Shown: positions 13,545 through 48,891, counted from the stretch's first letter. The stretch: 64,000 nucleotides of DNA from Lachnospiraceae bacterium (GCA_014804605.1 JAAUZM010000027.1:45220-109219); one strand, 5' to 3'. Notes: generated from the letters alone by a model not told the origin. Numbers and translations are program-made.

Positions 13545-13858
13545 AATTCATCCTCACTTTCCGGTTGCACCGGTGCAACCTCTTCACTTTCTGTTTCGTT
13601 ATACATATACTGCTCCTTTAACCGCACCCGCTGCTCTTCCTTTGTCTCGAAATAGGATTTTACACTGTAAACAAGGAATGCACCTACGATCTCCGTCACA
13701 ATTAGCCCGCCCATCGTCTCCGCGATCTGATCCCGCCCCAGCAGCGCGAGCAGAAACGGAAACTGCATATCAACCAGCGCCACATTGATGATCCGGGTCA
13801 TCATCTTTTTGGTGTATGTATGATACCGGCGTGGTCTGGTCTGTCCGCTCTCTTCCAT
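13541..13858 (-). CDS. lysis-cassette membrane protein with acidic tail
   Basis: Start trimmed to ATG 13858 because the longer ORF overlaps the XhlA-like gene. The C-terminus ...SEEVAPVQPESEDEL carries palindrome copy 1. Confidence 0.5.
   Translation of the reverse strand: MEESGQTRPRRYHTYTKKMMTRIINVALVDMQFPFLLALLGRDQIAETMGGLIVTEIVGAFLVYSVKSYFETKEEQRVRLKEQYMYNETESEEVAPVQPESEDEL
13564..13579. repeat. 16-bp perfect palindrome GTTGCACCGGTGCAAC, copy 1 of 7
   Basis: Exact match, preceded by CCG; read as VAPVQ in the 13541..13858 gene. Confidence 0.95.
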
Positions 13859-13884
13859 TGTCCTCAGTCCTTTCCCGCAATGAT

Positions 13885-14145
13885 CTACACGATCGCGACT
13901 ACCGCAGCAATCACCGCACTTATGACCGCGCCGATCGCTGCGCCGGCGCTTGTCCTGCTCAGCCATTTGTTCCTATCCTGCAGATCCGCAATATCCTCTG
14001 CCTGCTGCGCGTTCTGCTCCTGCAGTTTGATTATTTCCCGCTGGTTATCATAGATCTGTTTCTTACTGTTGTCCCAGCTCTCGATCTTTGATTCGATCTT
14101 GATCAGGCGGTCTAAGACTTCCCTCTCGAAACTATTCTCCGGCAT
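13885..14145 (-). CDS. XhlA-like lysis-associated protein (coiled coil plus C-terminal TM)
   Basis: 86 aa; N-terminal coiled coil and C-terminal AAIGAVISAVIAAVVAIV anchor; positioned like PBSX xhlA upstream of holin and lysin; GGAGGA SD. Confidence 0.6.
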   Translation of the reverse strand: MPENSFEREVLDRLIKIESKIESWDNSKKQIYDNQREIIKLQEQNAQQAEDIADLQDRNKWLSRTSAGAAIGAVISAVIAAVVAIV

Positions 14146-14163
14146 AATTTTCCTCCTTCCCTG

Positions 14164-14373
14164 TTACTGTATCATCTGCTCACTTTTTATCTGCTGTCGT
14201 ACCTGACTGATCTGATCCGTCGGCGGTCCATTCGCCGGAAACATTGTTGCAACAGCTATTGCAGCAACTGATGCCATAAAAATAATATAAATTGCTGTCA
14301 GTATCTTTTTATTCCCACTTTCCGTTCTCCGGCATAGCTCCTCATGCTCTTTTTTTGATATATAGTCTTCCAT
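14164..14373 (-). CDS. small single-pass membrane protein
   Basis: 69 aa ORF with one TM (ILTAIYIIFMASVAAIAVATMF); weak SD. Confidence 0.4.
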   Translation of the reverse strand: MEDYISKKEHEELCRRTESGNKKILTAIYIIFMASVAAIAVATMFPANGPPTDQISQVRQQIKSEQMIQ

Positions 14374-14400
14374 ATTATTTCACATCGCTTTTTCAAGTTG

Positions 14401-15714
14401 TTATTCAACAGATGAATCGATCAAATCTTCTGTAGTCTCCTGCCCCGCCTGTGCACCTTTAAGTGCATCCATTCTTTTCGTGAGATTATTGATCTGCTCT
14501 TGCAGTTGCTGTAGGCTGGATAGTAGACTGTTATATCTACCTTCCACTTCCATTTGCAGTCCAAACAGCGAAATCGTCCTATTATTAAATGCTGTCTGTA
14601 CATCTCCTTCAATCCATACATTTCCTTTAAGCTGTGCACCTCCCGCTATTGTTGCATTGCCATTCCAGTCAATTTCTACAATATTCTTTCTGTCTGTATC
14701 AGACGTTCCGCCGCCGATAATCACAGCGCCGCTTTTGGCGGAATTATACTTGCCTCCAGCATGTTGTGCCATATCCGCAGCCATTACTCCCAGCCCCTCT
14801 GCGTGAGAATATGGTGGTGCAGCTGTGGTATTGTATCCCTCGGCATGAGCGCAAGTCATATTTGCTACCGTACCGTATCCCTCTGCATGGGAATAATCTC
14901 CATTTGCAGTCGTCTCGTTCCCTTCTGCGTGACTTGACTGGCCTCTCGCATTCGTTTTATTTCCCTCTGCGTGGGAATAACTGCCGATTGCAGTCGTCTC
15001 ATTCCCCTCTGCATGGGCAGCGTATGTGCTGGGAGAATTGCCGGCAATTGTCTTATATCCTTCTGAGTGAGAATAATGTCCTCCTGCGCAGGTTTCAAAT
15101 CCTTCTGCATGTTGAGAATTTGTCGCAGCCGGATATTCTTCCAATCCTGCCACTGTGCCATGTCCTTCAGCATGAGACTGAATTCCTATCGCTTTCGTAC
15201 CGTATCCCTCTGCATGAGATTGATTCCCGATCGCATTCGCGGAATACCCTTCCGCATGAGAAGAATAACCTTCAGCCTTTGACAGCCTCCCTTCGGCGTG
15301 GCTATAATTTCCGGAAGCTACCGTATCACCACCTTCAGCATGTGAAGGACTCCCGGAAGCCGTCGTATCTGTTCCTGACGCGGCAGAAAAGTCTCCCGAT
15401 GCGGTTGTTCTACTTCCTTCCGCGCAGGAATTCGCACCACTTGCACTAGTCATAAATCCGTATGCACGTGCATTTCTACCGGATGCAATGCCGTTATCTC
15501 CCCACGCGATACTCTGATCTCCTTTTACACTCTCGTTTTGCCTCCCAAGATTAATCGAATCATCATCGTATATCTCTTTCAGAGCACGGTTGTCCTTCGC
15601 TTCCTTGATTCCGGATTCGATATGCTCCAAGTCATCTGCCAGAATCGGTGTTATGCTATTAGGCTTATCCATCCAGTCTTCGTGCACCTTTGTGTATGTA
15701 TCTCTGGTTGCCAT
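14401..15714 (-). CDS. tail fibre with YadA-head-like (Hep_Hag-type) repeats and C-terminal coiled coil
   Basis: 437 aa; roughly 18 tandem 14-residue units built on xSHAEGxxTxAxGx; C-terminal LLSSLQQLQEQINNLTKRMDALK. Confidence 0.7.
   Translation of the reverse strand: MATRDTYTKVHEDWMDKPNSITPILADDLEHIESGIKEAKDNRALKEIYDDDSINLGRQNESVKGDQSIAWGDNGIASGRNARAYGFMTSASGANSCAEGSRTTASGDFSAASGTDTTASGSPSHAEGGDTVASGNYSHAEGRLSKAEGYSSHAEGYSANAIGNQSHAEGYGTKAIGIQSHAEGHGTVAGLEEYPAATNSQHAEGFETCAGGHYSHSEGYKTIAGNSPSTYAAHAEGNETTAIGSYSHAEGNKTNARGQSSHAEGNETTANGDYSHAEGYGTVANMTCAHAEGYNTTAAPPYSHAEGLGVMAADMAQHAGGKYNSAKSGAVIIGGGTSDTDRKNIVEIDWNGNATIAGGAQLKGNVWIEGDVQTAFNNRTISLFGLQMEVEGRYNSLLSSLQQLQEQINNLTKRMDALKGAQAGQETTEDLIDSSVE
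14710..15490 (-). repeat. tandem 42-nt (14-aa) degenerate coding repeats in the fibre gene
   Basis: Recurring YSHAEGY/SSHAEGN/QSHAEGH units seen in the translation; boundaries approximate. Confidence 0.6.
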
Positions 15715-15724
15715 GATATCCCTC

Positions 15725-25312: not shown

Positions 25313-25549
25313 CTACTTCGCTCCATCCTGTTGCACCGGTGCAACTCCGTCATTCACCGCTCCTGACAATGCGTCCAGCTCTGTCTCCAGCGCCGTATTC
25401 TCCACAGTAAGATCCTCTACCGTCTTCTTCAGCGCCGTATTCTCCGCAGTAAGTTCTTTTACGGACTTCTTCAGTTCCTTATTTTCCTTCTTCAATGCAG
25501 AATCCGGCGTCTTATCGTCCTTACTCGTTCCCATTCCTACTGTTCTCAT
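25313..25549 (-). CDS. small coiled-coil head-module protein
   Basis: 78 aa; internal duplication ENTALKKTVEDLTVENTALETELD; the C-terminus DGVAPVQQDGAK carries palindrome copy 2. Confidence 0.45.
   Translation of the reverse strand: MRTVGMGTSKDDKTPDSALKKENKELKKSVKELTAENTALKKTVEDLTVENTALETELDALSGAVNDGVAPVQQDGAK
25330..25345. repeat. 16-bp perfect palindrome GTTGCACCGGTGCAAC, copy 2 of 7
   Basis: Exact match; read as VAPVQ. Confidence 0.95.
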
Positions 25550-32214: not shown

Positions 32215-32988
32215 CTATTCATAATCTTCCAGCCTGCGGTTCTCCCTACTGTTTAGGACGATCTCCGCTAATGTCTGCATATTGTCGGCTGCTTGCCCGC
32301 TGGTTTCATCCGGAAGGTTGTTCTTCAGGAACTCGATCGCTTTCTGTTTATCGTACAGTTTGATACTGATTCCCTCCTTCGTCTCCTTGATCTCCTTCAC
32401 CAGTGTGCCGTCCATGTCCTGCCTCACGCATACGCTCCCGCTGCTTATATCTACAAAATCATTGATGTCTGCCCTCGCGATATCAATCTGCTGCTGGATC
32501 AGATCCTTGATGTCTATCCGGATGTCCTGATGGAGCTCATCAAGCACTCGGTCTATCTCTTTTTGGACTTCCCTATTTTTCCCTAGAGTGTACGCATTCC
32601 TACAGGCATTTTCATAACTACATTGAAAAGCTTTCTGATATGCTTTAACCTGATTGCGATATTTGATGTAGTAGAGACAGAAAAGCCGCTGTTTTTCTGA
32701 TAGTTGTCCATCTAGTTCGACCCCCGGCACCTCTTCGATTTCCGTATCCGGTTGCACCGGTGCAACTCTCTGATTTTGTGTGCACACTTTTTGCTTTTTG
32801 TGTGCACACTTTTTCTCTTTTTGTGCGCACCCCTCTTTTCCACCCCCGCGATCCTTTCTTGACCATCCATACCGCTGTTTCCAGCTCTTAACCGTGTTGA
32901 TGGTGACGCCGTACTTCGCTGCGATGTCTTTATACTTCATTCCGAGCATATAGTCGTTCTCGGCCGCATCTATATTCCTCTCATCCAC
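32215..32988 (-). CDS. terminase small subunit (N-terminal HTH plus Terminase_2-like domain)
   Basis: [27 protein letters not shown]; [26 protein letters not shown] core. The lysine-rich linker holds palindrome copy 3 and tandem GTGTGCACAC repeats. Confidence 0.75.
32751..32766. repeat. 16-bp perfect palindrome GTTGCACCGGTGCAAC, copy 3 of 7
   Basis: Exact match preceded by CCG; read as VAPVQ in the small terminase linker. Confidence 0.95.
32774..32830. repeat. three direct repeats (about 22-bp period) of TTTTTGTG(T/C)GCAC, two containing the 10-bp palindrome GTGTGCACAC
   Basis: GTGTGCACAC at 32778-32787 and 32800-32809; GTGCGCAC at 32823-32830; all inside the small terminase linker. Confidence 0.8.
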
Positions 32989-33875: not shown

Positions 33876-34610
33876 TTATCCTTTACTCCCCATTTCTCCT
33901 TCCGGCTTCTCACACCGTTCAAACTCTATTACCCATACCCATGGATTAGCTAACCACCCATACTGAGCAAGGTCTGGCTTCTTGATGGTGTAATCCCATA
34001 TCATCGCAAAACGTTCTTTATATGACTCATCCGTCCATTCACCGCACAAATGGGCTATCTCAGGTCGTATCTTTATTTTTTTGTCAGTCGGGTATGTCCC
34101 ATCATCATATATACCCTCGCGCTTTATCTTTTCTTTGGTGACCTCTTGCAGACGTTCCACCCTGACATCTGTAACCTTTAACCAGATACGGGCAGCTTCT
34201 TTCGGCATATGTATGGATGGATACCAAACACCAACAGAAGGATACTCATTATCTTCAACTGATGCCTTATATAAATAACACCCACATTCTCCTTTGTCAT
34301 GATTAAAAACCTTATGTGCAGTTTCGTCACAACAATTATGCTCTTCCATATCCATTCCACAATCCCAGCACGGCTCCCAGCTCCACGTTTCCCGTACATA
34401 CAGAATATCTCCCAAATGATAAGGTGCTTTATACACTGGACTTTCAAGTGTATCTGTTTTTTTATTCAGACAATTTATTACCTTTCCTCCTTCACATACG
34501 AAATTTTCCCACACTGATTGTTTTACAACTCTTCTTGTAACCCTTTTTCTGTCATCCAGTATCGCCCGTACCATCTCGATGTTAAATAATATTGGTAATA
34601 CTCTGCTCAA
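33876..34610 (-). CDS. hypothetical phage protein (possible ASCH/PUA-like N-terminus)
   Basis: 244 aa; the LPILFNIEMVRAILDDRKRVTRRV motif recalls ASCH-like phage proteins, from memory only; cysteine cluster CWDCGMDMEEHNCC. Confidence 0.45.
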   Translation of the reverse strand: MSRVLPILFNIEMVRAILDDRKRVTRRVVKQSVWENFVCEGGKVINCLNKKTDTLESPVYKAPYHLGDILYVRETWSWEPCWDCGMDMEEHNCCDETAHKVFNHDKGECGCYLYKASVEDNEYPSVGVWYPSIHMPKEAARIWLKVTDVRVERLQEVTKEKIKREGIYDDGTYPTDKKIKIRPEIAHLCGEWTDESYKERFAMIWDYTIKKPDLAQYGWLANPWVWVIEFERCEKPEGEMGSKG

Positions 34611-34921
34611 TTTGCTCCACTCCTTCCTTCTCCCGTCTCTATACTTTCAAAAAGCTCCTGCAAAGCATTGATATGCCCGTAAATCTTATCAGCCGTTTCT
34701 CTGTCCAGATCTTTTCTAACTGTAGAAAACTCCTCGTTTAGTCTTCCTACAAGCTCACCCAGCCCAGCAGAAACATTATATTTTCTCAATACTATTTCAT
34801 TGTTATGGGTGAAAATCTCAATCTGATCTCCTCCTTTTATTCCGAATGTTTTTCTAATCTCCCTCGGAATAACAATTCTTCCGACTTCGTCAATCCTGCG
34901 GGATATGCCTGTAGTTTTCAT
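34607..34921 (-). CDS. AbrB/MazE/SpoVT-family DNA-binding protein
   Basis: RRIDEVGRIVIPREIRKTFGIKGGDQIEIF swapped-hairpin signature. Confidence 0.8.
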   Translation of the reverse strand: MKTTGISRRIDEVGRIVIPREIRKTFGIKGGDQIEIFTHNNEIVLRKYNVSAGLGELVGRLNEEFSTVRKDLDRETADKIYGHINALQELFESIETGEGRSGAN

Positions 34922-34997: not shown

Positions 34998-35432
34998 CTA
35001 GATTCTAACTTGCAGTTTGACGCAGAGGAATTCTATGGTATTGGCAGCTTCGTTAATTACTTCCTGCAAATACTCTTGTGGATAGCAGCAACCTTCTGGA
35101 TCTTCTCCGATTTCTCTTAATGTTGTTATCTGTTCACTGATCATGCTTCCTATAGATTCTTTGTGCCAAAAATTGATAAACTCATCCGTCAGCCGGCTCT
35201 TGTAATCTTCCAGTGGAATCAATATCTGATAGAAGAACACACGTCCCTGCCGGTAATGCTTTACATATCCTTTGCTTACGAGACGCGCCAGAAATGTAGA
35301 TACTGTCTGCGGCTTCCATTCCTTATGGTACTTATCATTCACTCTCTGCATGATTTCCATAAGGCCCAGTTCTTCTCCTGCGTCCCATACTGTTTTCATA
35401 ACCAGCTCTTCACAATCTGTCAGTTTCTCCAT
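34998..35432 (-). CDS. BlaI/MecI/CopY-family winged-helix repressor
   Basis: LTDCEELVMKTVWDAGEELGLMEIMQRVNDKYHKEWKPQTVSTFLARLVSKGYVKHYRQGRVFFY. Start trimmed to MEKLTD (ATG 35432). Confidence 0.75.
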   Translation of the reverse strand: MEKLTDCEELVMKTVWDAGEELGLMEIMQRVNDKYHKEWKPQTVSTFLARLVSKGYVKHYRQGRVFFYQILIPLEDYKSRLTDEFINFWHKESIGSMISEQITTLREIGEDPEGCCYPQEYLQEVINEAANTIEFLCVKLQVRI

Positions 35433-35778
35433 TGTTTTCACCCCTCTCTTCCGACATTCCCCATTCAAGTCTTGTGCCGCATTCATCGCAGAATTTCTGA
35501 TAACTGCGCACTATGTTCCCGCATTTACATTCCCCGCTACTACACCCGATTGCCGTATTTTCGCCGAGATATTTGGGTGTACAATACTTTGCGTTCTGCT
35601 TGGCCAGATCATATACCCTCTCCGGTTCCATGCCTGTGTCCTCATATTGCATAAGCCTGAACAGACAGCCGTACAGCTTTTCCCATATCTTATCTGTAAT
35701 GGTCTGTCCTATGCTCAGTTCTTTCCAGGGAAGACCTTTTATGCCCCAGTTTCCCTGTTTATCCTTTTGTGTCAGCAT
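35410..35778 (-). CDS. hypothetical phage protein with C-terminal zinc-ribbon-like motif
   Basis: 122 aa; CKCGNIVRSYQKFCDECG. Confidence 0.5.
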   Translation of the reverse strand: MLTQKDKQGNWGIKGLPWKELSIGQTITDKIWEKLYGCLFRLMQYEDTGMEPERVYDLAKQNAKYCTPKYLGENTAIGCSSGECKCGNIVRSYQKFCDECGTRLEWGMSEERGENNGETDRL

Positions 35779-35852: not shown

Positions 35853-35861
35853 AATAGCTAT

Positions 35862-35935
35862 GGAAGCATAGCTCAGCCGGGATGAGCGTTCGCCTCACAC
35901 GCGAGAGGTCATGGGTTCGAGCCCCATTGCTTCCA
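35862..35935 (+). tRNA. tRNA-Val (anticodon CAC), prophage-encoded, no encoded CCA
   Basis: Hand fold: acceptor GGAAGCA/TGCTTCC, D stem GCTC/GAGC, anticodon stem TTCGC/GCGAG with loop CTCACAC, T stem ATGGG/CCCAT with loop TTCGAGC, discriminator A, followed by a T run. Confidence 0.85.
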
Positions 35936-36075
35936 TTTTTTGTGTTTGTAACTCTTTTAATGCGGCTTCTGCTGCTTCTTTGGTGAGAAATATCATTTTA
36001 GTTTTGTATTCAACTTCTTTTTAAGTTTGTATTGTGTTATAATTCTTTCAATACTACTAATGAAAGGGTTACATA

Positions 36076-37521: not shown

Positions 37522-39087
37522 CTACTCCTCCGGTGCTTCGTCTATGGCTGCTGCCACGGGATTGTCTGCAACATCCAATTCCTGTATCTTATGTATTGTG
37601 CCTCTAACAGCTTCCAGCCACTTCTCCGCGTTCTGATACTCTCCCCGCTCCGTCAGAATGTAGACCTTGTCCAGATTATCCTTCAAGGCAATGAGGTAAC
37701 CACCAACGGCATCCAGCTTCTGTTCTACCGCCGTGTTATCCGGCATACACTGCGGCACATCTCCAATGCTTATCTGTCCATCAACGTCTTGCATGAGGAC
37801 TGCTGCCGGCGGCTCGGTTGCAGTACCCGCAGCGCTTCCCATAACTGCCTCTGTGTTTCCGCTTCCGGCTCCAGATGCAGCGTCTGCCGATTCAGGATCA
37901 TTGCCGTCGATGTTAGGCGGTACACAGTCCGTGCCGTCCGTTTCTTCCGGAATCCTGCTGCCGGCGTCAGGTTCATAAATATCACTTCCCATGCCAGACG
38001 TACCGTCCTGCCGATTTTCTGTGTTATTTTCCGGTTGCACCGGTGCAACTTCCATATTTTCATCACGGCTCTGATCCTCTTCCTTCTGTTCTGTGGTTTC
38101 CTGTGCCTGCACATTATCGTTGACCTTCGTAAGACTGTTGTCTTCCTTGGTCTTCTCGGGCGTTTGCGGCTTCGATACGGTCACGCGGCCGGGCTTTTTC
38201 TGTGCCTGTTTCGCTTCCCGGTCCGGTTGCACCGGTGCAACTTCCTTCTTTTCCTCCGGGAACTCCTCTCCGTATAGTATTTTCCAGCTTTCTTTCGCAT
38301 CATTCCCTTCACACAGAGACTCCATGTCAGCGATAAATTCATCCCATGTGCAGGTTTCTTTTTCTCCCGACCTTACATTGACTACCGTCGGATCAGCGCC
38401 GGCGCCTTTAATGCTCAGCAGCATTTTTCCTTCTCCCGGAATCCTCACGCTGACCATCCCTTCACCGGCGGGCGCGAGGGCATCCACCAGTTTATTTACC
38501 ACGGGCGCGTTCGATCCGTCATATACCGTATTCGCAACGGCATCGTACAGCTGCAGGTACAGCTCCGGCCGGTCGCGTCCGATCTGGTAGAGGACTTTTC
38601 CGAACAGCGTGTACTCCTGCTGCCGCTCATCCTGCTTCTCCAGCATGACTTCTATGTCCGTGCGTTTCTGCTCTTCATCGATCTCTGCCCTTATCGTCTG
38701 TATTTCTGACTTGCTGTAATCCGCGGTCAGTTCCTCATTGACTGCTGCCGGCAGTGTAAGCATGATCGCCAGCTTCGCATATCCAAAATTCCTGTATTTC
38801 TCCTGCAGGCTGTCGGAATACCCGCCCTCGGAGTATTCGTCATTGATCCGGATGAATCTCGATACCTGTGACTTGTCCAGATCGTACTCCGCTTCTGCAA
38901 ACTCATTGACGCTCCCATAACCGGATTCTTTTAATATATCCGTGTCCCTTGCGACCTTGAGCAGATACCCGATCCGCACGAAGCTCTCCGCGGATTTCTG
39001 CAGCTCCGTGTCTACTGCTGCCTTATACTCCTGATAACTGCCGTATTCATTGTTGATATTTAATACTTCTCCCGTTAATGGTTCCAT
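37522..39087 (-). CDS. early protein: DUF3102-like HTH N-domain, long acidic disordered region, helical C-domain
   Basis: Start trimmed to MEPLTGEV (ATG 39087, AAGGAG 5 nt upstream). SFVRIGYLLKVARDTDILKESGYGSVNEFAEAEYDLDKSQVSRFIRINDEY. Contains palindrome copies 4 and 5. Confidence 0.6.
   Translation of the reverse strand: MEPLTGEVLNINNEYGSYQEYKAAVDTELQKSAESFVRIGYLLKVARDTDILKESGYGSVNEFAEAEYDLDKSQVSRFIRINDEYSEGGYSDSLQEKYRNFGYAKLAIMLTLPAAVNEELTADYSKSEIQTIRAEIDEEQKRTDIEVMLEKQDERQQEYTLFGKVLYQIGRDRPELYLQLYDAVANTVYDGSNAPVVNKLVDALAPAGEGMVSVRIPGEGKMLLSIKGAGADPTVVNVRSGEKETCTWDEFIADMESLCEGNDAKESWKILYGEEFPEEKKEVAPVQPDREAKQAQKKPGRVTVSKPQTPEKTKEDNSLTKVNDNVQAQETTEQKEEDQSRDENMEVAPVQPENNTENRQDGTSGMGSDIYEPDAGSRIPEETDGTDCVPPNIDGNDPESADAASGAGSGNTEAVMGSAAGTATEPPAAVLMQDVDGQISIGDVPQCMPDNTAVEQKLDAVGGYLIALKDNLDKVYILTERGEYQNAEKWLEAVRGTIHKIQELDVADNPVAAAIDEAPEE
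38034..38049. repeat. 16-bp perfect palindrome GTTGCACCGGTGCAAC, copy 4 of 7
   Basis: Exact match; the extended CCGGTTGCACCGGTGCAACTTCC is shared with copy 5; read as VAPVQ. Confidence 0.95.
38226..38241. repeat. 16-bp perfect palindrome GTTGCACCGGTGCAAC, copy 5 of 7
   Basis: Exact match, 192 bp from copy 4; read as VAPVQ. Confidence 0.95.
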
Positions 39088-39103: not shown

Positions 39104-41311
39104 TCAGAATGCTGCTGCCATGAAATCAGCTTCCAGCACATCCGCCAGCAGCTTGCCGGCCAGCGGTCCGCGCCATATCTTATTGCCGTCCTTACGCAGT
39201 TTTGCATATTCCGCGATCCGTGCTTGGTTTGCCTTTTCCCCGAGTTTCTTTTCCTCTGCCGTCAGCCGCTTCACAAAAACCTTCTGCCATTTCTTTAAAA
39301 ACTTCACTGCCACTTCGAGATCGCTGTTTTGTCTGTCGCCGGTGGTGCGCTTCTGGCGGATATTGCCATTAGGTTCTACTTCCAACGTGTACCACGGGAT
39401 ATCCTTGTGGGCTGCCCTCCGCAGGAAGAACAGATAGGATTCATCCTTCCCGATCCGGTCAAAGTAAAACTCGCAGGTATGTACACAATGCTGCAGTATC
39501 CTTCCTTCCCTCACAATGTCTAAAATGCTTTCCGGTGCCAGAATCGCGAAATCCTTATCCTCATACTCAAATTTTTTAAGTTTGGGAAGATTGCCGTTTA
39601 CCTTCGGCCATTCCTTTTCCAGATTTTTTGCCTCTTTCTCCATTTCGCCTTTCTGCAGGATCATGACTACTTCATCATGGGCGGCTGTCAGGTCCTTCGG
39701 TTTCCATATTCTTTCATTGTGCGTATCCATCTTCGCTCTTTCCGCCATGTTGATGTAGTCGGCCCAGGTATTTTTCATCTCCAACATGGTTCTGTCCGCC
39801 ATCACGGACTGTTTTTTCAGATAGTTCCTGATTTTTACCGGGCTTGTATATGCATATACGGGCGGCGGCAGGAAATTAAATTCCGCCGTATGGAATCTGC
39901 TGTCTGCAAAATCTCCAATCACATCATCCGGCCATATGGTGTCTGACCGCTTTTCAAACTGATACCATTCGAGATGTATGATTCCTCCGTCCACTGCCCG
40001 GAGCCTTTGCAGTCTCGCCCTGTCAATTTCCAGTATTTTTGCCAGTTCCGTCTCATCGTTCTTCAATCTGGTCAGCTTACCGATGTTGCAAAGCAGATCC
40101 TTTGCAAGCCGGAACATCCCGATCTTTGCAAGTTTCTCAATTACGGGATAGTGCCTTTCTATGGACAGATATCTTTCCGTTGAAATCGGAAGATCCTCCC
40201 ACAGATCCACTGCGCTGTTTTTAAGTATTGTCTTTTTGAGCGCTGTAAGATTCCTTGTATACAGTTTCGTCATCAGGCTCTCGTATATGGTCCCGCCCTG
40301 CATCCAGTAATCCTGCTCCGGCATGAATCTTTCATACTTGTTTTTATACAATTGCCAGACATATCTCCTGACGCTGCCATCATCCATGGTCAGTGTGCGT
40401 GCCTGCTCGTGCGTGTGTATCTCCGGATTTCTGTAATCTCCCTTACGGTAGACCTTCCGCTGCCTGAAAGTTCTGATAACAATCCCGCCGCAGATCCGCT
40501 GTATGGCCTGCCCGGTATACGGCCGCGTCCTGATTGTGCCTGCTTTTCCTTCTGCTTTATATTGGACCTGTACACCGCACCGCCTGCAGAATCCCTCTTT
40601 ATTGTGCCGCGGCTTTGTAACCGGCACCATCCTGCCACAGTATGTACAATACCCCTCGTCAGTTCCGTTTCTGTCATACTGGTAGAATATAAAGTGCTCC
40701 CTGGCCGCTTCTTTCTTCATCCAGCTGACAAATGACGGGAATATCTCCGGTACCAGCGCCATGTCTGCATCCCATGGTGCCTGCTCCCGCTTCTCCTTTT
40801 CCTCAATCTTTTTCCGCTTCACATTCCGCTGCCAGTCCACCAGCCCCCAGATACCTCTCTCCTGTGTTCCCAGAAAACGCTTTATGGTATCCATCCCTTC
40901 CCGGTTCTGCCATACCCGTTTTTCCATTCCTTTATACCAGCGTCTGTCGTTCATGAACGAAGGCATTAATTCAAGGTTGTCCGCCATGGCAATGCTCCAT
41001 CCTTTCTCTTTCCCTTTCCGAAGCACTCTGGTGATGTATTCATTTCCTTCCGGATTGCAATAGATCTCGTAGGCCGGCGTCTTCTCCCCCTTTGCAATGT
41101 CCCACGGAAAGAATATGCATACCATCAGATACGGGCCTCTGGTCTGGCACCTCACAAATATGTCGTACAGGCTGCTCATCCTTTTTTTATGGCCCCTCTC
41201 CCATCCAAGCATTGCCTCATATGCCACCGCTTGTTTATTCTCTTTTGCCATCCGGACCATCTTGGGAGTCGCATAGATCCGTTTTAAGTTCCTCAGCTCT
41301 TCTTTCCGCAT
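39104..41311 (-). CDS. PcfJ-like large early protein
   Basis: 735 aa; zinc ribbon CTYCGRMVPVTKPRHNKEGFCRRCG; C-terminal ILQHCVHTCEFYFDRIGKDESYLFFLRR...PWYTLEV resembles the PcfJ-like domain as I recall it. Confidence 0.55.
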   Translation of the reverse strand: MRKEELRNLKRIYATPKMVRMAKENKQAVAYEAMLGWERGHKKRMSSLYDIFVRCQTRGPYLMVCIFFPWDIAKGEKTPAYEIYCNPEGNEYITRVLRKGKEKGWSIAMADNLELMPSFMNDRRWYKGMEKRVWQNREGMDTIKRFLGTQERGIWGLVDWQRNVKRKKIEEKEKREQAPWDADMALVPEIFPSFVSWMKKEAAREHFIFYQYDRNGTDEGYCTYCGRMVPVTKPRHNKEGFCRRCGVQVQYKAEGKAGTIRTRPYTGQAIQRICGGIVIRTFRQRKVYRKGDYRNPEIHTHEQARTLTMDDGSVRRYVWQLYKNKYERFMPEQDYWMQGGTIYESLMTKLYTRNLTALKKTILKNSAVDLWEDLPISTERYLSIERHYPVIEKLAKIGMFRLAKDLLCNIGKLTRLKNDETELAKILEIDRARLQRLRAVDGGIIHLEWYQFEKRSDTIWPDDVIGDFADSRFHTAEFNFLPPPVYAYTSPVKIRNYLKKQSVMADRTMLEMKNTWADYINMAERAKMDTHNERIWKPKDLTAAHDEVVMILQKGEMEKEAKNLEKEWPKVNGNLPKLKKFEYEDKDFAILAPESILDIVREGRILQHCVHTCEFYFDRIGKDESYLFFLRRAAHKDIPWYTLEVEPNGNIRQKRTTGDRQNSDLEVAVKFLKKWQKVFVKRLTAEEKKLGEKANQARIAEYAKLRKDGNKIWRGPLAGKLLADVLEADFMAAAF

Positions 41312-41865
41312 ATCTTTCCTCCCCTGATCCCGTACCAGGCACCCGCCTTATATTCCTCACCGTCGATAAATACCGGGTAAACCGCTTCAATCGCCCCCGA
41401 TCCTTTTGCTTCTTTCAGCAGGAAGATCCATGATCCTTTTACGCCTGCTGCCTGCGGATTTTTTCCGCGGACGATCACAAAGTCTCCCTCCTGTCCGCAT
41501 TCACCTTTATCCCTTGTCGCATAACCGGAGTTCTCCATTTTCCGCTCCGGATATTTCTGCATATACAGGCAGGCATGTGCGGCCAGTTTGATCCGATCGA
41601 TCTCGCGAAGCAGCGTCAGCTTTGTGCAGGATATCCTCGATCCCTCGCCATCCTGATTGATATCGCCTGCTGCCTCCACGATAAAAAACCGCGCATCCAT
41701 TGCCCAGTAATAGCCCAGCGCGCAGAGAGGGTTTTCCGCGCAGTGGAATCCGTTATGGGCGCATTTACACTCTGACTCCTCATAGGTCTGCCCCGGCTCA
41801 AACTGGAAAACGCCGTTTCCCATGGTCGCCTGCAGCTTACTGTTAAATCCTTTGTATGCCAGCAT
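41293..41865 (-). CDS. hypothetical early protein
   Basis: Start trimmed to MLAYKGFNSKLQ (ATG 41865, AGGAGGTG upstream); cysteine/histidine-rich core ESECKCAHNGFHCAENP. Confidence 0.5.
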   Translation of the reverse strand: MLAYKGFNSKLQATMGNGVFQFEPGQTYEESECKCAHNGFHCAENPLCALGYYWAMDARFFIVEAAGDINQDGEGSRISCTKLTLLREIDRIKLAAHACLYMQKYPERKMENSGYATRDKGECGQEGDFVIVRGKNPQAAGVKGSWIFLLKEAKGSGAIEAVYPVFIDGEEYKAGAWYGIRGGKICGKKS

Positions 41866-41878
41866 TGCCTGCACCTCC

Positions 41879-42385
41879 TTACTTCGTGTAATAATTACGG
41901 ATGATCTGCTTTGCCCTGGCATTGGTGAGCCCGTCCAGATACAGCGGTCCGCGCAGCGTCTCCAGTTTTCCGTTATGTCTTACCATGGTCACGTTGACGA
42001 TCTTATCGCTGACCTGCGTTTTTGTTCCGAACGAATCGCTGATCATGGCGCTTATGCATGCACAAAGGCTTTTCCCTTTCCTCCTGACACCATCGCAAAC
42101 CCGTCTGTCTTCTGCACACAGGCAAAGTACCAGGTTCTTCCAGTCTATAAGTTTTCCTTCCAGCTGCAGATCCCTGCCCTCGACGAGCAGCTTGCCCGTT
42201 GCCGCCATGAGCGGAGTTGCCAGACATTCCTCCTCGCCTGTGATATATGCATCTGCGTCCTCTGTGTCTATACCGTTTTCCGCTGCAAGTGTGAGGATTC
42301 CATCTGTGTCTGCTGCTTCCAGCAGTTCTTTCGCTTTTTTGTTTATCTCATCTGCTGAATCAAATTCTCCAAATCTTTCAAACAT
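41879..42385 (-). CDS. PcfK-like protein (the family that includes AcrIIA9-type Cas9 inhibitors)
   Basis: 168 aa; N-terminus FDSADEINKKAKELLEAADTDGILTLAAENGIDTEDADAYITGE; neighbour of the PcfJ-like gene. Assignment from memory. Confidence 0.45.
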   Translation of the reverse strand: MFERFGEFDSADEINKKAKELLEAADTDGILTLAAENGIDTEDADAYITGEEECLATPLMAATGKLLVEGRDLQLEGKLIDWKNLVLCLCAEDRRVCDGVRRKGKSLCACISAMISDSFGTKTQVSDKIVNVTMVRHNGKLETLRGPLYLDGLTNARAKQIIRNYYTK

Positions 42386-42404: not shown

Positions 42405-42902
42405 TCATGTCTGTGTATTCCATTCCGGTGTTTCTATCTCTACATAGCCTGCTGCCGGCATCCCGTGTTCCCTCTCCAGTTCTTTCCTGAGCCTGTCCTG
42501 CATGCACTGCCGGTATTCGTGCGGCCTGTCCGTCCACTCCTCCATGTGATGTTCCAGAAGCAGGGCACACCGGTTCCATGCTTCCGCGTTCCTGATCGGA
42601 TTCCCCTTTGCGTTGGTCCATCCGTTCTTCTGCCACTGTGCAAGCCAGTGGTTCTGCATGGTCCGCAGAACGTGTCCGCATTCAGTAAATACTACAGCGC
42701 AGCATGTTTTCGTCAGGATGGAAAAAGCCTTTTCGATCAGGCACAGTGCTAAATCGTTCTCAGTGGTGCAGTCCGAATAAATGATGCCGCCCCTTGTGAC
42801 GGGTTTACCAGTGGATATGATATATTCCACGATCCACGCGCCTGCCGCGCGTCTGGTGGCGGGTCCTTTAAAAGATGTCTCTATGTAGATGTTCACATTC
42901 AT
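42405..42902 (-). CDS. RNase H-like domain protein
   Basis: 165 aa; IYIETSFKG...TENDLALCLIEKA...WQKNGWTNAKGNPIRNAEAW layout of RNase HI. The first acidic residue is not a canonical D. Confidence 0.55.
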   Translation of the reverse strand: MNVNIYIETSFKGPATRRAAGAWIVEYIISTGKPVTRGGIIYSDCTTENDLALCLIEKAFSILTKTCCAVVFTECGHVLRTMQNHWLAQWQKNGWTNAKGNPIRNAEAWNRCALLLEHHMEEWTDRPHEYRQCMQDRLRKELEREHGMPAAGYVEIETPEWNTQT

Positions 42903-43729
42903 CCGCTGTCACCTTCCTTCCCGTCCGTCATCACCCCTGCTCCCGACATATGTGTCGCGACCAATGCATGCTTTAATCCTCCCTGCCCGGTAGTTATCAG
43001 CTTTTTCAGGGTGTAGTGCTGTACGGGCTGTCCGGTCACCGGATTCTCGCCGTTCCAGATACTGTCCTTGACCACGTACCAGCCTTTTGGCGCCACAGGC
43101 GGATTGCGCCACCGCCTGTGATGTTTGATCTCCACCTTTGGCTTCGGCATAACCAGATTGCCCCGGCTCCTTGAATAGGTGCACCATCCGCATTCATCCT
43201 TGGTCTCCGCCTTGACTATGTATTCCGCCAGATCTTCATACTCGCCGTCCTCGTACAGTGAGGAAAAGAACTGTCCTCCGTGGGTCCACAGCTTTTTTAC
43301 CAGCTCCGTGGTCCTGATCCCGTTACGGTCTATGTCCTCGATGATCAGATGGTGGTGCAGGACCTGTTTTTTCTTTCCCCGCTCGGTAACGGCGATCCAT
43401 TTAAAAGTGAGCCCTGCCTTTTTGTATGCCTCCCTCATTAGGGCCAGAAACCGCGCCCGCTGCTTCACTGCTTCTTTGTAGGTCTCCGGCCGGCTGTCCT
43501 TTGCGTACTTCAGGATCAGATGCCAGTCGCCCAGATGGAAGTTGCCGAGGATCAGAAGCTGCACCTTCCGGCAGCGGTTCCTGTGGTTCTGTTTTTTGAT
43601 ATCCTCCGGTGTCCTCTTCTGCCTGCCGTTCCTCTTCTGCCCCGGGGCTCCATAGTTACCCGGAATGCATTTCCTTATTATCCTTATGACACCCATGTCA
43701 TATGTTGTCTGTCTATAGATCGATACCAT
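42899..43729 (-). CDS. HUH-type rolling-circle replication initiator-like protein
   Basis: WHLILKY (motif 1-like), VLHHHLII (HUH), LAEYIVKA (Tyr motif). Start uncertain: AAGGAG abuts the ATG. Confidence 0.45.
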   Translation of the reverse strand: MVSIYRQTTYDMGVIRIIRKCIPGNYGAPGQKRNGRQKRTPEDIKKQNHRNRCRKVQLLILGNFHLGDWHLILKYAKDSRPETYKEAVKQRARFLALMREAYKKAGLTFKWIAVTERGKKKQVLHHHLIIEDIDRNGIRTTELVKKLWTHGGQFFSSLYEDGEYEDLAEYIVKAETKDECGWCTYSRSRGNLVMPKPKVEIKHHRRWRNPPVAPKGWYVVKDSIWNGENPVTGQPVQHYTLKKLITTGQGGLKHALVATHMSGAGVMTDGKEGDSG

Positions 43730-44168: not shown

Positions 44169-44184
44169 GTTGCACCGGTGCAAC
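44169..44184. repeat. 16-bp perfect palindrome GTTGCACCGGTGCAAC, copy 6 of 7 (intergenic)
   Basis: Exact match; spans from the last base of the upstream TAG stop to 3 nt before the next SD. Confidence 0.95.
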
Positions 44185-44793: not shown

Positions 44794-44814
44794 GGCTTGT
44801 CCTCTCTGACCGGC

Positions 44815-45440: not shown

Positions 45441-45602
45441 CTAGATCCCGACCACGACGTCAGCTGTGGGTTCTTTATGCTCCATCTGATCTCGCGCCAA
45501 CAGAACATCTGCCGCAAATATCAAAGTACGGATGCTCTGTGGCTCCATCTTTACCACTTTCTCTGCAAGGCTCTTTACTTCTTTCTCTTTGCTTGCTAAC
45601 AT
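45441..45602 (-). CDS. small switch-region protein (53 aa)
   Basis: Start trimmed to MLASKEKEVK (ATG 45602, AGAGGTG upstream). Confidence 0.4.
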   Translation of the reverse strand: MLASKEKEVKSLAEKVVKMEPQSIRTLIFAADVLLARDQMEHKEPTADVVVGI

Positions 45603-45629
45603 TTTGTTCACCTCTTTTCTTTCCCTATA

Positions 45630-45649
45630 TCCTATCCATGTGGTACAAT
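45630..45649 (+). promoter_or_regulatory. promoter/operator box TCCTATCCATGTGGTACAAT (second copy)
   Basis: Near-identical to 45029-45048; 28 nt upstream of the 45678 start. Confidence 0.5.
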
Positions 45650-45677
45650 TCACTTATCAAATACAAAGGAGAAAATT

Positions 45678-45986
45678 ATGCTTCATAAAATTGAAAGAAA
45701 AATCTTGAAAATTATTTCAAAGCAACCCTCTGAGTTTATATTGGAAATCGAACAATTAACTCCATATTCTGGAAATGATATTCAGTTAGCAATGAACTCA
45801 CTAAAAGAAAAAGGTTATTTCATAGAAACAAGTGCAAGTATTGATTGCTCGCATTTTACCTATGAATTGTCCACACAAGGACGATTTTACAGAGAATACT
45901 GTTTACAATGTTTCATGAGCGATATCTTTATACCGTCTGTCGTTTCAATGGTTACATCATTGATTACATACTTTTTGTGTGGCTAA
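45678..45986 (+). CDS. winged-helix-like protein with C-terminal TM anchor
   Basis: 102 aa; AAGGAG SD; KILKIISKQPSEFILEIEQLTPYSGNDIQLAMNSLKEKGYF plus hydrophobic tail IPSVVSMVTSLITYFL. Confidence 0.5.
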   Translation: MLHKIERKILKIISKQPSEFILEIEQLTPYSGNDIQLAMNSLKEKGYFIETSASIDCSHFTYELSTQGRFYREYCLQCFMSDIFIPSVVSMVTSLITYFLCG

Positions 45987-46174
45987 CCGAAAAAGTATTT
46001 ACATAACAGTGTGGTAATCACAGCTACCACGATACTGGCAAGTATTGATGCCGGTTTTGCATTCTTTATTTTCCTCACCTCCTTGTCGCTTTCTTGATCT
46101 ACAAAACAAATTAATGTATAACTCAAATATTGCTTTTGTGATACTATAATACTTCCATAGAAATTTTTTGTCAA
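45983..46174 (-). CDS. possible small membrane protein (TTG start)
   Basis: 63 aa ORF, no ATG start and no clear SD; C-terminal TM ILASIVVAVITTLL. Confidence 0.25.
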   Translation of the reverse strand: MTKNFYGSIIVSQKQYLSYTLICFVDQESDKEVRKIKNAKPASILASIVVAVITTLLCKYFFG

Positions 46175-46183
46175 TATTTTTTA

Positions 46184-46212
46184 TTGCAAGAGTAATATTT
46201 TTGTGTTAATTT
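46184..46212 (+). promoter_or_regulatory. candidate promoter of the repressor-like gene
   Basis: TTGCAA, 17-nt spacer, TGtTAATTT. Confidence 0.4.
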
Positions 46213-46233
46213 AATGATGGAGGTGAATCTAAG

Positions 46234-46668
46234 ATGGATAAATACGATATTGATTTATGCTACAGAATTCGTGAATTGCGAAAGGCTGTCCAGATGAATC
46301 AAACAGATTTTGGTACTAAAATCGATGTTGCACAAAGCTATTTAACAAATATTGAGACCGCTAAAAGACCCGTTACTGATAAGATTTTTAAACTAGTTTG
46401 TTTACAGCCATGGAATGGTAAATTTGTCAACGAGACGTGGCTCCGTACTGGTAAAGGAGACATGTTTCAAGAGCTTCCTCCTGAAGATGAGACGGCTGCT
46501 GCCATTTCCAACGTATTGGAGGATATCAACTGCAAAAATTCTATTTATACGCTGGTAAAAGAATTGCTTTTGAAATATGACCGTCTGGATCCCAGATCTA
46601 AGAAAGTCATCGACGAATATGCTGATGACGTAATCAAAGGCTATATAGAAAAGAGAGAAGAAACTTAA
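46234..46668 (+). CDS. XRE-family repressor-like protein (candidate CI analogue)
   Basis: 144 aa; IRELRKAVQMNQTDFGTKIDVAQSYLTNIETAKR HTH; GGAGGTG SD; located in the switch region near the integrase. Confidence 0.75.
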   Translation: MDKYDIDLCYRIRELRKAVQMNQTDFGTKIDVAQSYLTNIETAKRPVTDKIFKLVCLQPWNGKFVNETWLRTGKGDMFQELPPEDETAAAISNVLEDINCKNSIYTLVKELLLKYDRLDPRSKKVIDEYADDVIKGYIEKREET

Positions 46669-46682
46669 TTCTTCTCTTTTTT
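46654..46682 (+). terminator. intrinsic terminator of the repressor-like gene
   Basis: AGAGAAGAA-ACTTAA-TTCTTCTCT followed by TTTTT. Confidence 0.6.
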
Positions 46683-47124
46683 AATACTGTAGTTTCAATA
46701 AATATTATTCTACATTCTTCTGGCTATCACCATCGCCACCTACTTTCTCCTTATGCCTCTTCACTAATGTATATATATGCTGGAGGAATATAACATCATC
46801 TTCCCTGATTTCTGTGAGCATTGCTATTATCAATCTTTTGTATTCCATATGTATAACCCACCTTTCTTTTGTGATTTGAACAACCCTTATGCCGCACGCC
46901 CTCTGGAATTGTTATTCTACCACATTTATAATTCTTATTTATAACCCTTTGTCAATCAACTTCTTATAATGATTTTAAACTACAAACATGCATTTCTAAT
47001 CGGTAATTTTTGGAAATTATTTCTTTTATTGTTATTTTTAGGTAAATATAGTTGAATTATGTTGTAGTTTAACTACTTTTATACTATATTATTTTTATGG
47101 TTGTATTCCAAATTTTATTAAAGG

Positions 47125-48078
47125 ATGGGAAAATCCATGGATTGTGTAAATAACAATAGGGCTAATTATGATGACAGCTTAACAGATGAAAATGTTCCTT
47201 ATAGATCACAAAGATTAATTATCAAAGGTCTACACATATACTTCATTGATGTAGCTAGGGAAATTGTAGAGCACAACTCTCTTGATATCATACCTCTCAT
47301 GCGCGAGTATCATCTTACAGAATCCGAAGTAAATCAAATTATTGCAGACATTAGAGAGGCTAAGATCTTAGATTCAAGCCAAAACGTAACTATGACTGTT
47401 GATGAATTTGAAAAGTTTATTGATATTTACGAACCAAGCATATTTGAATGTACCAATTCTGTTTTTGATAAAGAAATATTTATGTGCCTTGGCGAAATCA
47501 TTTTTGATAAGGGTGTAAAAGACACCTATAATAGTCTTCCTGCTGATGAAGTCATTGATTACTTAAATATTATGGAACGGCTAAAAATCATAGCATATGA
47601 TGACTATAGAAACGAGTATGATATTTTAACCGAAAAAACGGATTATGAACGAATATGCAAATGTATTCCCAACTTTTTTAGAAGCAAAAAATATGATGAT
47701 TCTGAATCAAACTATGACAATGCTGATTTTGACAATATGAGCGGGCTTGAGTTCGAAAAGTATTGTGCACATATTCTTCTACAAAATGGCTTTTGTGAAA
47801 TAAAACTCACTCCTCCAAGTGGCGACCATGGAATAGACATTTTAGCTTCAAAAAATGATGTATCTTATGCTATCCAATGCAAATGCTATTCATCCAACGT
47901 TGGTAATGATGCAATACAGCAAGCCCATACTGGAAAGAGCCTATACCATAGAGATATAGCTGTAGTGATAACTAATCGATATTTCACTCCACAGGCTGCT
48001 GAGGAAGCTGATGCATTGGGCGTGAAATTATGGGACAGGGATAAACTCAATGAAATGATAAACGGTGGTTTTCAATAA
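47125..48078 (+). CDS. Mrr-type (Mrr_cat) restriction endonuclease-domain protein with novel N-terminal region
   Basis: C-terminal GLEFEKYCAHILLQNGF...GDHGIDILA...AIQCKCY...VVITNRYFTPQAAEEA...KLWDRDKL. The N-terminal 200 aa include a winged-helix-like stretch. Start may be ATG 47137. Confidence 0.7.
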   Translation: MGKSMDCVNNNRANYDDSLTDENVPYRSQRLIIKGLHIYFIDVAREIVEHNSLDIIPLMREYHLTESEVNQIIADIREAKILDSSQNVTMTVDEFEKFIDIYEPSIFECTNSVFDKEIFMCLGEIIFDKGVKDTYNSLPADEVIDYLNIMERLKIIAYDDYRNEYDILTEKTDYERICKCIPNFFRSKKYDDSESNYDNADFDNMSGLEFEKYCAHILLQNGFCEIKLTPPSGDHGIDILASKNDVSYAIQCKCYSSNVGNDAIQQAHTGKSLYHRDIAVVITNRYFTPQAAEEADALGVKLWDRDKLNEMINGGFQ

Positions 48079-48158
48079 AACCTTGGAAAGATTCTATGAA
48101 AGCTATTTTTGGCATCGATAACTGACACCTATAAGCAAACTTGTTAGGAGGATTTACT

Positions 48159-48824
48159 ATGGCACTGATCAACTGTCCTGAATGTGGAAAAGAAATCTCA
48201 GACAAGGCTTCTGCATGTCCTAAATGCGGTTGTCCTATTGACAACATTGCTCTTTCAACCCATATTGAGCCAAAACAGGCTTATCCCATTAGTTGTACCA
48301 GAAAAATCGGGCCTGTACAAATTGATGAGCGCAATAAAATGTTTAGAATAAACGGCTCCATTCCAGTCAATGGTAAAAAAGATGGCGTTGGAAAAACAGT
48401 CTTTAAAGGAATGATGGCTCTCAGCACGATGGGAATGTCCGTTGCTGCAGAAAAAATGGTCGGTGGCGGAAATAAGCAAAAGGTTGGCAATAAAATGTGG
48501 TGCAACTTTAGCGATCTGATCAACTATGATCTGCTTGAAGATGATAGCGTTATAACTAGTGGCGGCGTTGGTCAAGCCCTAGTAGGTGGTGCGCTATTTG
48601 GTGCAGTCGGTGCTATTACTGGCGGCATAACTGCAACTCGCAAATCAAAAAAGAAAGTTGAATCACTTATCATTAAAGTAACCCTTAACAATTTTAACTG
48701 CCCCTGTTTAATGATTCCGCTGATAACGAAATCTACCAAAACAAACAGCAAAGAATATTCAAATGCCTTTAACCTTGCCCATCAGATTCTATCTGCACTT
48801 GATGTGATAACACACAATCAATAA
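48159..48824 (+). CDS. zinc-ribbon protein with glycine-zipper hydrophobic segment
   Basis: Start trimmed to MALINCPECGKEISDKASACPKCGCPI (AGGAGG upstream); GGVGQALVGGALFGAVGAITGGITA segment. Confidence 0.6.
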   Translation: MALINCPECGKEISDKASACPKCGCPIDNIALSTHIEPKQAYPISCTRKIGPVQIDERNKMFRINGSIPVNGKKDGVGKTVFKGMMALSTMGMSVAAEKMVGGGNKQKVGNKMWCNFSDLINYDLLEDDSVITSGGVGQALVGGALFGAVGAITGGITATRKSKKKVESLIIKVTLNNFNCPCLMIPLITKSTKTNSKEYSNAFNLAHQILSALDVITHNQ

Positions 48825-48875
48825 ATAACGATGAGTATTTCTATGTAAATGCAAAACCGATTGCTGACCAGTTCG

Positions 48876-48891
48876 GTTGTACCGGTGCAAC
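48876..48891. repeat. palindrome copy 7 of 7, one mismatch (GTTGTACCGGTGCAAC), intergenic
   Basis: 15 of 16 match; lies between the zinc-ribbon gene and the PanA-like gene. Confidence 0.85.

Follow-up and report, generated by a model that had tools for sequence, protein, structure and literature searches.

The stretch of DNA considered here is a window of 64,000 nucleotides (nt) from a Lachnospiraceae bacterium (GCA_014804605.1 JAAUZM010000027.1:45220-109219), and the element in question is a 16-bp palindrome, GTTGCACCGGTGCAAC, that is dispersed over the prophage contained in it. The lytic genes of the prophage lie on the minus strand, from ~12.6 to 45.5 kb, and are followed by a plus-strand accessory or lysogeny arm that ends in a serine recombinase. 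A mismatch-tolerant search of the 64 kb found exact copies of the palindrome at 13564, 25330, 32751, 38034, 38226 and 44169 and a seventh copy, the 15/16 variant GTTGTACCGGTGCAAC, at 48876; beyond those seven, no site in the window matches it with two mismatches or fewer. Shuffled sequences predict 0.01 copies, which bears out the claim, made in an earlier reading of the window from the sequence alone (the sequence-only reading), that seven copies at these positions exceed chance. All of them are located between the endolysin gene (12.6 kb) and the serine recombinase gene (50.7-52.1 kb), and the ~24 kb of flanking chromosome in the window hold none. The usual context of the motif is A-GTTGCACCGGTGCAAC, its 18-mer form is AGTTGCACCGGTGCAACN, and a longer sequence, CCGGTTGCACCGGTGCAAC, is common to four copies.

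Five of the exact copies are found within four minus-strand genes and are translated as VAPVQ, and the two others are intergenic; in this, as in the sequence common to four copies and the motif-free flanks, the sequence-only reading proved accurate. The first copy (13564..13579, exact) encodes VAPVQ near the C-terminus of a 141-amino-acid (aa) protein without family match (13541..13966, minus strand) and ends ~20 nt short of the start of the gene that follows (13544). The second (25330..25345, exact) encodes it in the tail of a 78-aa, coiled-coil-like protein of the head module (25313..25549, minus strand), ~33 nt before the next start codon (25297). The third (32751..32766, exact) is in the gene for the small terminase (terS; 32215..32988, minus strand), in the hypervariable linker between the helix-turn-helix (HTH) and Terminase_2 domains. 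Two copies are contained in the gene of a 521-aa early protein (37522..39087, minus strand), which consists of a conserved N-terminal domain of ~280 aa (N-domain) and a hypervariable C-terminal part. One of them (38226..38241, exact) directly follows the N-domain, at a position kept across the protein family, and the second in-gene copy (38034..38049, exact) falls in an acidic linker. Such in-gene copies consist of one or two single palindromes, 168-321 bp apart, and the GC content around 38 kb is ~0.50. The sixth copy (44169..44184, exact) is intergenic: its first G is the G of the TAG stop codon of a 131-aa gene, and it ends 3 nt 5' of the ribosome-binding site (GGAAAGGAGG) of a 90-aa open reading frame (ORF). 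The seventh (GTTGTACCGGTGCAAC, 15/16, 48876..48891) is also intergenic and belongs to the plus-strand arm.

Exact-match scans retrieved at least 120 stretches of viral contigs, most of them from contigs of 20-43 kb, and at least 120 stretches of genomes, which together form a set of 240 motif-ascertained loci. Among the matches listed, the genome stretches are nearly all prophage-like DNA of Lachnospiraceae, including Acetatifactor, Roseburia, Lachnospira, Alitiscatomonas and others, from human, mouse, ruminant and bird guts, and other phyla are represented by single matches at the level predicted by chance. In tblastx comparisons, resemblance to the viral loci is seen for the Lachnospiraceae stretches but not for those of the stray phyla. 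The description of the motif as prophage-only in the sequence-only reading thus holds for the flanks of the window but not in the sense of a sequence private to this prophage. A comparable density throughout host chromosomes, which would have spoken against a phage element, is not what these matches display, and a host-chromosomal motif of the Chi, DNA uptake sequence or parS-like type was rejected, given the nature of the genome matches and the empty flanks of the window. A very large family of temperate Lachnospiraceae phages has the motif as a hallmark, and the sequence is not spread through the chromosomes of their hosts, a conclusion that goes beyond the sequence-only reading. No description of the 16-mer was found in the searchable literature, as that reading had anticipated, and the 12-mer core appeared there only in three unrelated papers on Drosophila.

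A second set of loci was ascertained by protein. Peptides of the N-domain of the 521-aa family match 575 viral stretches in IMG/VR, of which the best 80 were analyzed; ~65 of these 80 have an exact or one-mismatch copy, mostly directly after the N-domain of the 521-family gene, and the 1.39 Mb of protein-ascertained loci contain 124 copies (41 exact and 83 with one mismatch). The remaining loci form one lineage, in which 12 of 14 loci have an aligned linker and all 12 harbor a variant with two or three mismatches there, ATTGCACC[G/A]GTGCAA[C/T]. Most of the six genomes scanned in this lineage have extra variant copies elsewhere, including the perfect palindrome ATTGCACCGGTGCAAT. Since the variant lineage shifts the outer positions, the constrained core of the motif is the 14-mer TTGCACCGGTGCAA, the outer base pair differing by lineage. 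At the scale of the whole protein family, an exhaustive profile search yielded 2172 cluster representatives (50% identity), and [VI]APVQ occurs just after the N-domain in 128 of the 148 best representatives (86%), with near variants in several more. The 521-family gene is the commonest carrier of the motif, and its copy is the most conserved one; 2-6 further copies per genome are found beyond it, a 50-kb locus (L243) has four copies, and the motif as a whole occurs in more than 100 unrelated sequence contexts.

The same one-base variant is often present at two non-homologous sites of one genome (L258, L262, L245, L263, L250 and related loci); examples are A11 with A11, A1 with A1, and T5 at one site with A12, its mirror, at the other. 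Such pairs hint at concerted evolution of the sites or at lineage-specific recognition, and recurrent mutation may also produce them, since all frequent variants except A11 are transitions.

Whether it is the DNA or the encoded peptide that is maintained was addressed by a codon test on 71 unique coding sequences of the 521 family, with a median amino acid identity of 51% in the N-domain. At conserved four-fold sites of these genes the third positions are saturated, with an entropy of 1.3-1.9 bits. Within the motif, in contrast, the Ala codon is GCA in 68 of 69 sequences and the Gln codon is CAA in 69 of 69, against the local preference for CAG at conserved Gln positions elsewhere in the gene (55:4, 52:10 and 59:1); CCG prevails over CCA for Pro (53 vs 17) and GTG over GTA for Val (55 vs 10). 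Because the codons of the motif are near-fixed while neighboring four-fold sites are saturated, selection on nucleotides is favored. The motif is under nucleotide-level selection, and its synonymous sites do not vary freely, as the sequence-only reading had supposed in taking the DNA rather than the peptide to be selected. The occurrence of [VI]APVQ at one position in 86% of the family representatives is what might be expected if VAPVQ(P) were itself the selected feature, but, in addition to the codon usage, about half of all copies are not within any ORF and a second frame, SCTGAT, is also in use; selection for the peptide was rejected by the codon test, and we give it virtually no chance. 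What emerges is a case of overlapping constraints, in which a nucleic-acid signal is written through coding linkers, its codons being fixed across proteins that are only ~50% identical.

After de-duplication, roughly half of the copies are not enclosed by an ORF, and two settings recur. In the first, the motif has its place in the order stop codon, motif, ribosome-binding site and start codon, the distance from motif to start codon having its peak at 10-19 nt. In the second, it is read in frame as (E/K)VAPVQ(P/Q) in linkers rich in Lys, Glu and Pro. The frames of the copies within long ORFs are VAPVQ in 122 cases, (S)CTGAT in 14 and LHRCN in one, so that the single shared frame reported by the sequence-only reading is dominant but not exclusive, and the ranking of the frames matches the harmlessness that each peptide would have in a linker. 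The terS homologues that were examined have a hypervariable linker that lacks the motif, and the terS copy therefore represents a lineage-specific acquisition in a tolerant spot. Placement is thus driven by what a compact genome tolerates.

The terS linker has a further peculiarity. At 32778-32809, in minus-strand sense, two exact copies of AAAAAGTGTGCACACAAAA, with a spacing of 22 bp, precede the third copy of the motif by 11 nt, and each of them contains a 10-bp palindrome, GTGTGCACAC; their frames differ (KCAHK and KVCTQ). The recurrence of comparable peptides in terS homologues is suggestive of a second DNA signal that runs through the linker, and the GTGTGCACAC/AAAAAGTGTGCACACAAAA repeats may possibly be a pac site recognized by TerS.

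The spread of one palindrome over more than 100 unrelated contexts, the frame-preserving length of its EVAPVQ form (18 nt) and the occasional presence of the same one-base variant at two sites of one genome would all suit a very small, mobile palindrome with in-frame insertion, in the manner of the Rickettsia palindromic elements. Close relatives, however, provide no clean filled/empty pairs, only point-mutated or 1-bp-deleted copies such as GTTGCATCAG-GCAAC, and the 'empty' junctions of distant relatives show no target duplication. Moreover, the in-gene copy is vertically kept across a family of 2172 clusters, and no transposase is linked to the motif. In-frame mobile insertion, one of the four explanations put forward in the sequence-only reading, did not withstand this comparison, the copies merely decaying among close relatives, and it can hardly be credited.

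Short shared homology at the boundaries of modules and domains, promoting the exchange of cassettes and of the C-terminal part of the 521-aa protein, is another way to account for copies at gene junctions and in domain linkers. It is in keeping with 47 context-class pairs that are homologous on one side only (for example, the same terminator flank followed by a terS-like or an HNH gene), and with a 3.6-fold enrichment of megablast homology end-points within 15 bp of the motif. One-sided homology, however, can be expected wherever modules join, and the end-point enrichment is still 2.7-fold at 200 bp, as would be expected for any variable linker or junction, so that the effect is regional; the recombination explanation of the sequence-only reading thus finds end-points near the motif but no sharp focus on it. 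A stretch of 16 bp is also short for homologous recombination, and the motif has no dedicated recombinase linked to it; at homologous positions it is inherited stably, and selection for evolvability would hardly fix CAA at 69 of 69 sites. On balance, we consider such a role improbable.

Window proteins that match the 240 motif-ascertained loci belong mainly to one syntenic early module, and the structural modules vary. The order of the module is a 131-aa protein, an HUH Rep (PF23343), RNase H, a 168-aa protein, a DUF7666 protein, a PcfJ-like protein, the 521-aa protein and an HNH nuclease, the DUF7666 protein and the nuclease being present only sometimes. In the window, the genes of this module are all on the minus strand: the HUH-type rolling-circle replication initiator (42899..43729; PF23343, phrog_3584) has HHHLII and YIVK motifs, and it is followed by RNase H (42405..42902), the 168-aa protein without family match (41879..42385), the DUF7666 protein (41293..41922) and the 735-aa PcfJ-like protein (39104..41311). 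No helicase, primase or polymerase was seen in the early module. Within the 240 loci the motif co-occurs most often with the 521-aa and PcfJ-like genes, and in the protein-ascertained set the PcfJ-like gene adjoins the 521-family gene in 80 of 80 loci, with an HNH gene 3' of the 521-family gene in 31 of 80. The prophage as a whole is of siphovirus type, ~40 kb in length, and its module of HUH rolling-circle-type Rep and RNase H is kept in all related loci.

Several other genes of the prophage were considered as sources of a binding protein or were seen beside them. A MazE/AbrB-like protein (34607-34921) and a BlaI/penicillinase-repressor-like protein (34998-35486) are encoded on the minus strand between the early and packaging modules. 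Both had been proposed as binders in the sequence-only reading and were rejected, as neither has a homologue in the 240 motif-ascertained loci. The plus-strand arm (45678-52102) encodes an XRE-type HTH protein (46234-46668), a candidate repressor with homologues in only 13 of the 240 loci, as well as a protein with an Mrr_cat nuclease domain (47125-48078), a zinc-ribbon membrane-like protein (48141-48824), a SocA/Panacea antitoxin-domain protein (49215-49652) and the serine recombinase (50705-52102); it looks like prophage-borne defense or toxin-antitoxin cargo. A tRNA-Val gene (anticodon CAC) is also contained in the prophage, at 35861-35936 on the plus strand, opposite to the phage genes.

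The HNH gene 3' of the 521-family gene in 31 loci raises the idea that the motif is its target, or more generally that the motif is a recognition sequence for methylation or restriction, or an epigenetic mark. A perfect spacer-less palindrome with a CCGG core that contains ACCGGT has the look of such a site, and frequent C-to-T and G-to-A variants at positions 5, 8, 9 and 12, of which 8 and 9 belong to the CCGG core, are of the type caused by deamination of 5-methylcytosine. Yet phages avoid restriction targets, and this motif is enriched instead; its 14-16 specified bases far exceed the 4-8 bp of usual Type II sites, no methyltransferase was seen in the conserved module or in this prophage, and the HNH gene is missing from most related loci. 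We regard this explanation as very improbable.

Natural comparisons among related loci bear on the partner of the motif. Two loci (L242 and L244) have the PcfJ and DUF7666 genes, with no 521 homologue detected, and lack the motif; on the basis of these two loci only, PcfJ and DUF7666 were rejected as binders. In L326 and L327 the in-gene copy has been lost, and 2-3 exact copies are kept elsewhere in the locus. In clades with a distinct N-domain (…GYLLKQGRD…), A/T replaces G/C at the outer positions of the motif at several non-homologous sites per genome. Together, these comparisons are suggestive of a link between the motif and the 521 family rather than its neighbors, from few independent lineages. 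In the predicted structure of the N-domain (pLDDT 83), which is helical, residues 60-85 form an HTH-like helix pair, and a small beta subdomain is also present. The 521-aa protein belongs to no Pfam family; its matches to DUF3102 (E=0.018) and to the Borrelia PF49 'replication/partitioning protein' (E=0.006, 17 bits vs a cutoff of 60) are both sub-threshold. A fold search of BFVD with the N-domain returned only uncharacterized phage or DUF3102 proteins, and nothing informative was found in the literature on DUF3102 and PcfJ.

The reading that we favor, giving it slightly less than an even chance, is that the motif constitutes a dispersed set of sites at which a phage-encoded protein binds duplex DNA, the 521-aa protein itself being the probable binder. 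Of the four explanations in the sequence-only reading, a phage-encoded DNA-binding protein is the best supported, and the 521-aa protein is its best candidate. The data show the enrichment, the family-wide distribution, the nucleotide-level selection, the linkage to the 521 family and the tolerance-driven placement; that the ligand is a protein acting on duplex DNA, which protein it is, and what its binding would achieve are inferred. Under this model, a large family of temperate Lachnospiraceae phages would keep several dispersed copies of a DNA-level recognition site, and the candidate binder, probably a dimeric, sequence-specific protein encoded by the phage, would be the DUF3102-like 521-aa protein with its HTH-like helix pair. 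The most conserved copy would reside in the binder's own gene, at the boundary between the N-domain and the variable linker, and other copies would be held where a packed genome permits a fixed 16-mer, that is, in spacers between stop codon and ribosome-binding site and in disordered linkers in which VAPVQ or SCTGAT is harmless. During lytic growth, the copies might then act together across the genome, in the manner of an operator or centromere array, in regulation, organization or replication.

A number of observations sit uneasily with this proposal. The assignment of the binder rests on co-occurrence and on few lineages, and the N-domain has no significant match in the PDB to a solved DNA-binding fold, by sequence or by fold. 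The homologue in the C. scindens phage phiCs5676-1 (23% identity) is accompanied neither by the motif nor by any other repeated palindrome; in the distant relatives phiCs5676-1, MT835653 and L244, no alternative palindrome is repeated. A site that is near-invariant across proteins of 40-50% identity is unusual for pairs of phage repressor and operator. Furthermore, the flanks are asymmetric, which a symmetric dimer site does not predict and which the sequence-only reading had not noted: in gene (purine-rich) orientation, A is found at -1 in 88-92% of independent contexts, whether these are coding or intergenic, and the mirror T at +1 in only 2-22%. In the same orientation G occupies +2 in ~60% of contexts, and at the few sites where the strand composition of the surrounding DNA is opposite or ambiguous (n=17), A(-1) and T(+1) are both frequent. 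Finally, terminator-like hairpins are present within 75 nt upstream of 26 of 142 intergenic copies (18%), compared with 26 of 385 control junctions (7%), a 2.7-fold difference; together with the many copies that abut ribosome-binding sites, this link to terminators could point to a role at the RNA level.

The asymmetric flank and the upstream terminators therefore leave some weight with a strand-specific role, and the presence of Rep and RNase H adds to it. In its general form, such a role would belong to a strand-specific hairpin in single-stranded nucleic acid, either mRNA or displaced single-stranded DNA (ssDNA). As mRNA, the hairpin would be an element for protein binding, processing or translational control just 5' of ribosome-binding sites; as ssDNA, it would supply dispersed priming or initiation signals for complementary-strand synthesis in rolling-circle replication. 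Consistent with this are a flank that is polar to gene direction, with A at -1 and no matching T at +1, the peak of motif-to-start distances at 10-19 nt, the enrichment of terminator-like elements upstream, and a conserved module in which an HUH Rep and RNase H are encoded and neither a helicase nor a primase or polymerase was seen. Symmetric double variants are also over-represented, accounting for six of 31 two-mismatch variants, as compared with ~0.7 expected, but they derive from few lineages. Against it, the predicted hairpin is weak (6 bp and a CCGG loop, -5.2 kcal/mol) and no better than shuffles in context, and what is conserved is the sequence, including that of the loop, rather than the pairing. 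Covariation in support of an RNA hairpin was rejected: single-base variants on the sense strand of intergenic copies mostly break pairs (29 broken vs 8 kept), and the skew among them is explained by strand composition. Copies also occur deep within long ORFs without a nearby ribosome-binding site, and no Rfam family is found at the sites, the sole match in the window at gathering threshold being the tRNA at 35862-35935. Nor does the motif behave as an intrinsic terminator, as no T-run follows it 3' in the sense direction, where a ribosome-binding site or coding sequence follows; a simple terminator scan flagged three copies, on the antisense strand only. We hold the hairpin explanation to be unlikely, though it deserves a hearing. 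A more doubtful elaboration of it is a polar, genome-wide single-strand signal in phages with HUH Rep, consisting of hairpins that would start the complementary strand on a 40-kb ssDNA or of RNA hairpins that would be read by the DUF3102-like protein. If this elaboration were true, the palindrome would be no conventional operator, and the A(-1) flank and the Rep/RNase H module would become parts of one mechanism.

Lachnospiraceae are dominant gut commensals, and to our knowledge their temperate phages have hardly been studied by experiment. The duplex-site proposal would tie an uncharacterized protein family, comprising 2172 clusters at 50% identity and lacking a Pfam assignment, to a precise candidate DNA ligand, and would open a first way to study how a very abundant group of gut phages is regulated or replicates. 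The motif may also be used as a simple sequence marker for such prophages in metagenomes. We consider the matter of moderate to high interest because the phage family is large and the hypothesis of protein-binding sites is a clean one.

With respect to known systems, the motif does not conform to ParB/parS sites, origin iterons, terminators, elements of the Rickettsia palindromic type or restriction-modification sites. The Rickettsia palindromic elements are mobile repeats of ~100-150 bp with insertion polymorphism. They share with the motif a palindrome that is tolerated in frame within unrelated proteins, but the latter measures 16-18 bp, shows no filled/empty polymorphism and is subject to site-specific purifying selection.

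Origins of replication within initiator genes offer another parallel. The origin of phage lambda in O and oriL of SPP1 in gene 38, the latter complemented by a distant oriR, are contained in the linker-coding part of the gene for the initiator or replisome organizer. Similarly, the motif is found in DNA that codes for a flexible linker after an N-terminal domain, and SPP1 also has a distant second copy. Unlike these origins, it lacks a cluster of iterons as well as an AT-rich region for unwinding next to it, a separate HUH Rep is present, and 4-7 single sites are spread over the genome.

The parS sites bound by Spo0J in B. subtilis and the KorB operators (OB) of RK2 are perfect palindromes of 13-16 bp with ~10 dispersed copies, some of which lie in coding sequence. 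One copy of parS is contained within spo0J, the gene of its own binding protein, and the site is strongly conserved over large distances. By analogy only, the motif resembles parS in its dispersed copies and in the presence of one of them in the gene of the candidate binder, in 86% of family representatives. The similarity of the half-site GTTGCAC to the parS half-site GTTNCAC, to which the sequence-only reading had drawn attention, fails in register: the parS half-sites abut (TGTTNCACGTGAAACA), whereas GTTGCAC-CG-GTGCAAC has two extra central bp, and as 16-mers the two agree at only ~2 of 8 half-site positions. Pfam and NCBIfam give no ParB match for the 521-aa family, neither an Srx-like CTPase domain nor a ParB HTH was detected in it, and no ParA-like gene was seen among the prophage ORFs examined. 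In contrast to the situation of KorB in the plasmid RK2, the element here is an integrating prophage.

Closer to the motif in biological setting are the dispersed repressor sites of phages. The stoperators of L5 and other Cluster A phages are asymmetric 13-mers in small intergenic gaps, they are bound by a monomeric immunity repressor, gp71, and they differ between immunity groups. They number in the tens, and through them one protein acts on the whole genome. Both they and the motif are dispersed short sites, and the single orientation of stoperators is comparable with the polar A(-1) flank; the motif differs in its perfect palindromic core, which is nearly invariant across lineages, and in that about half of its copies are intragenic. 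The CIRs of phiC31 are highly conserved palindromes of ~17 bp, present in many, mostly short intergenic, copies per genome and bound by the c repressor. The likeness lies in a conserved palindrome with many copies across one phage genome. Unlike CIRs, the motif has copies in frame within protein linkers and is shared by a large and diverse family, not by one immunity group, and its candidate binder, which cannot be recognized as a repressor, is encoded in the lytic early operon. As with the phiC31 CIRs, the L5 stoperators and the C1 operators of P1, many copies of one short conserved site are present, far above chance. As to co-variation of site and binder, the core is invariant across proteins of 40-50% identity, and only the outer base pair shifts with the clade of the N-domain, in few independent lineages. 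By these comparisons, the nearest analogues of the motif appear to be the phiC31 CIRs, the L5 stoperators, the KorB operators of RK2 and the parS site inside spo0J.

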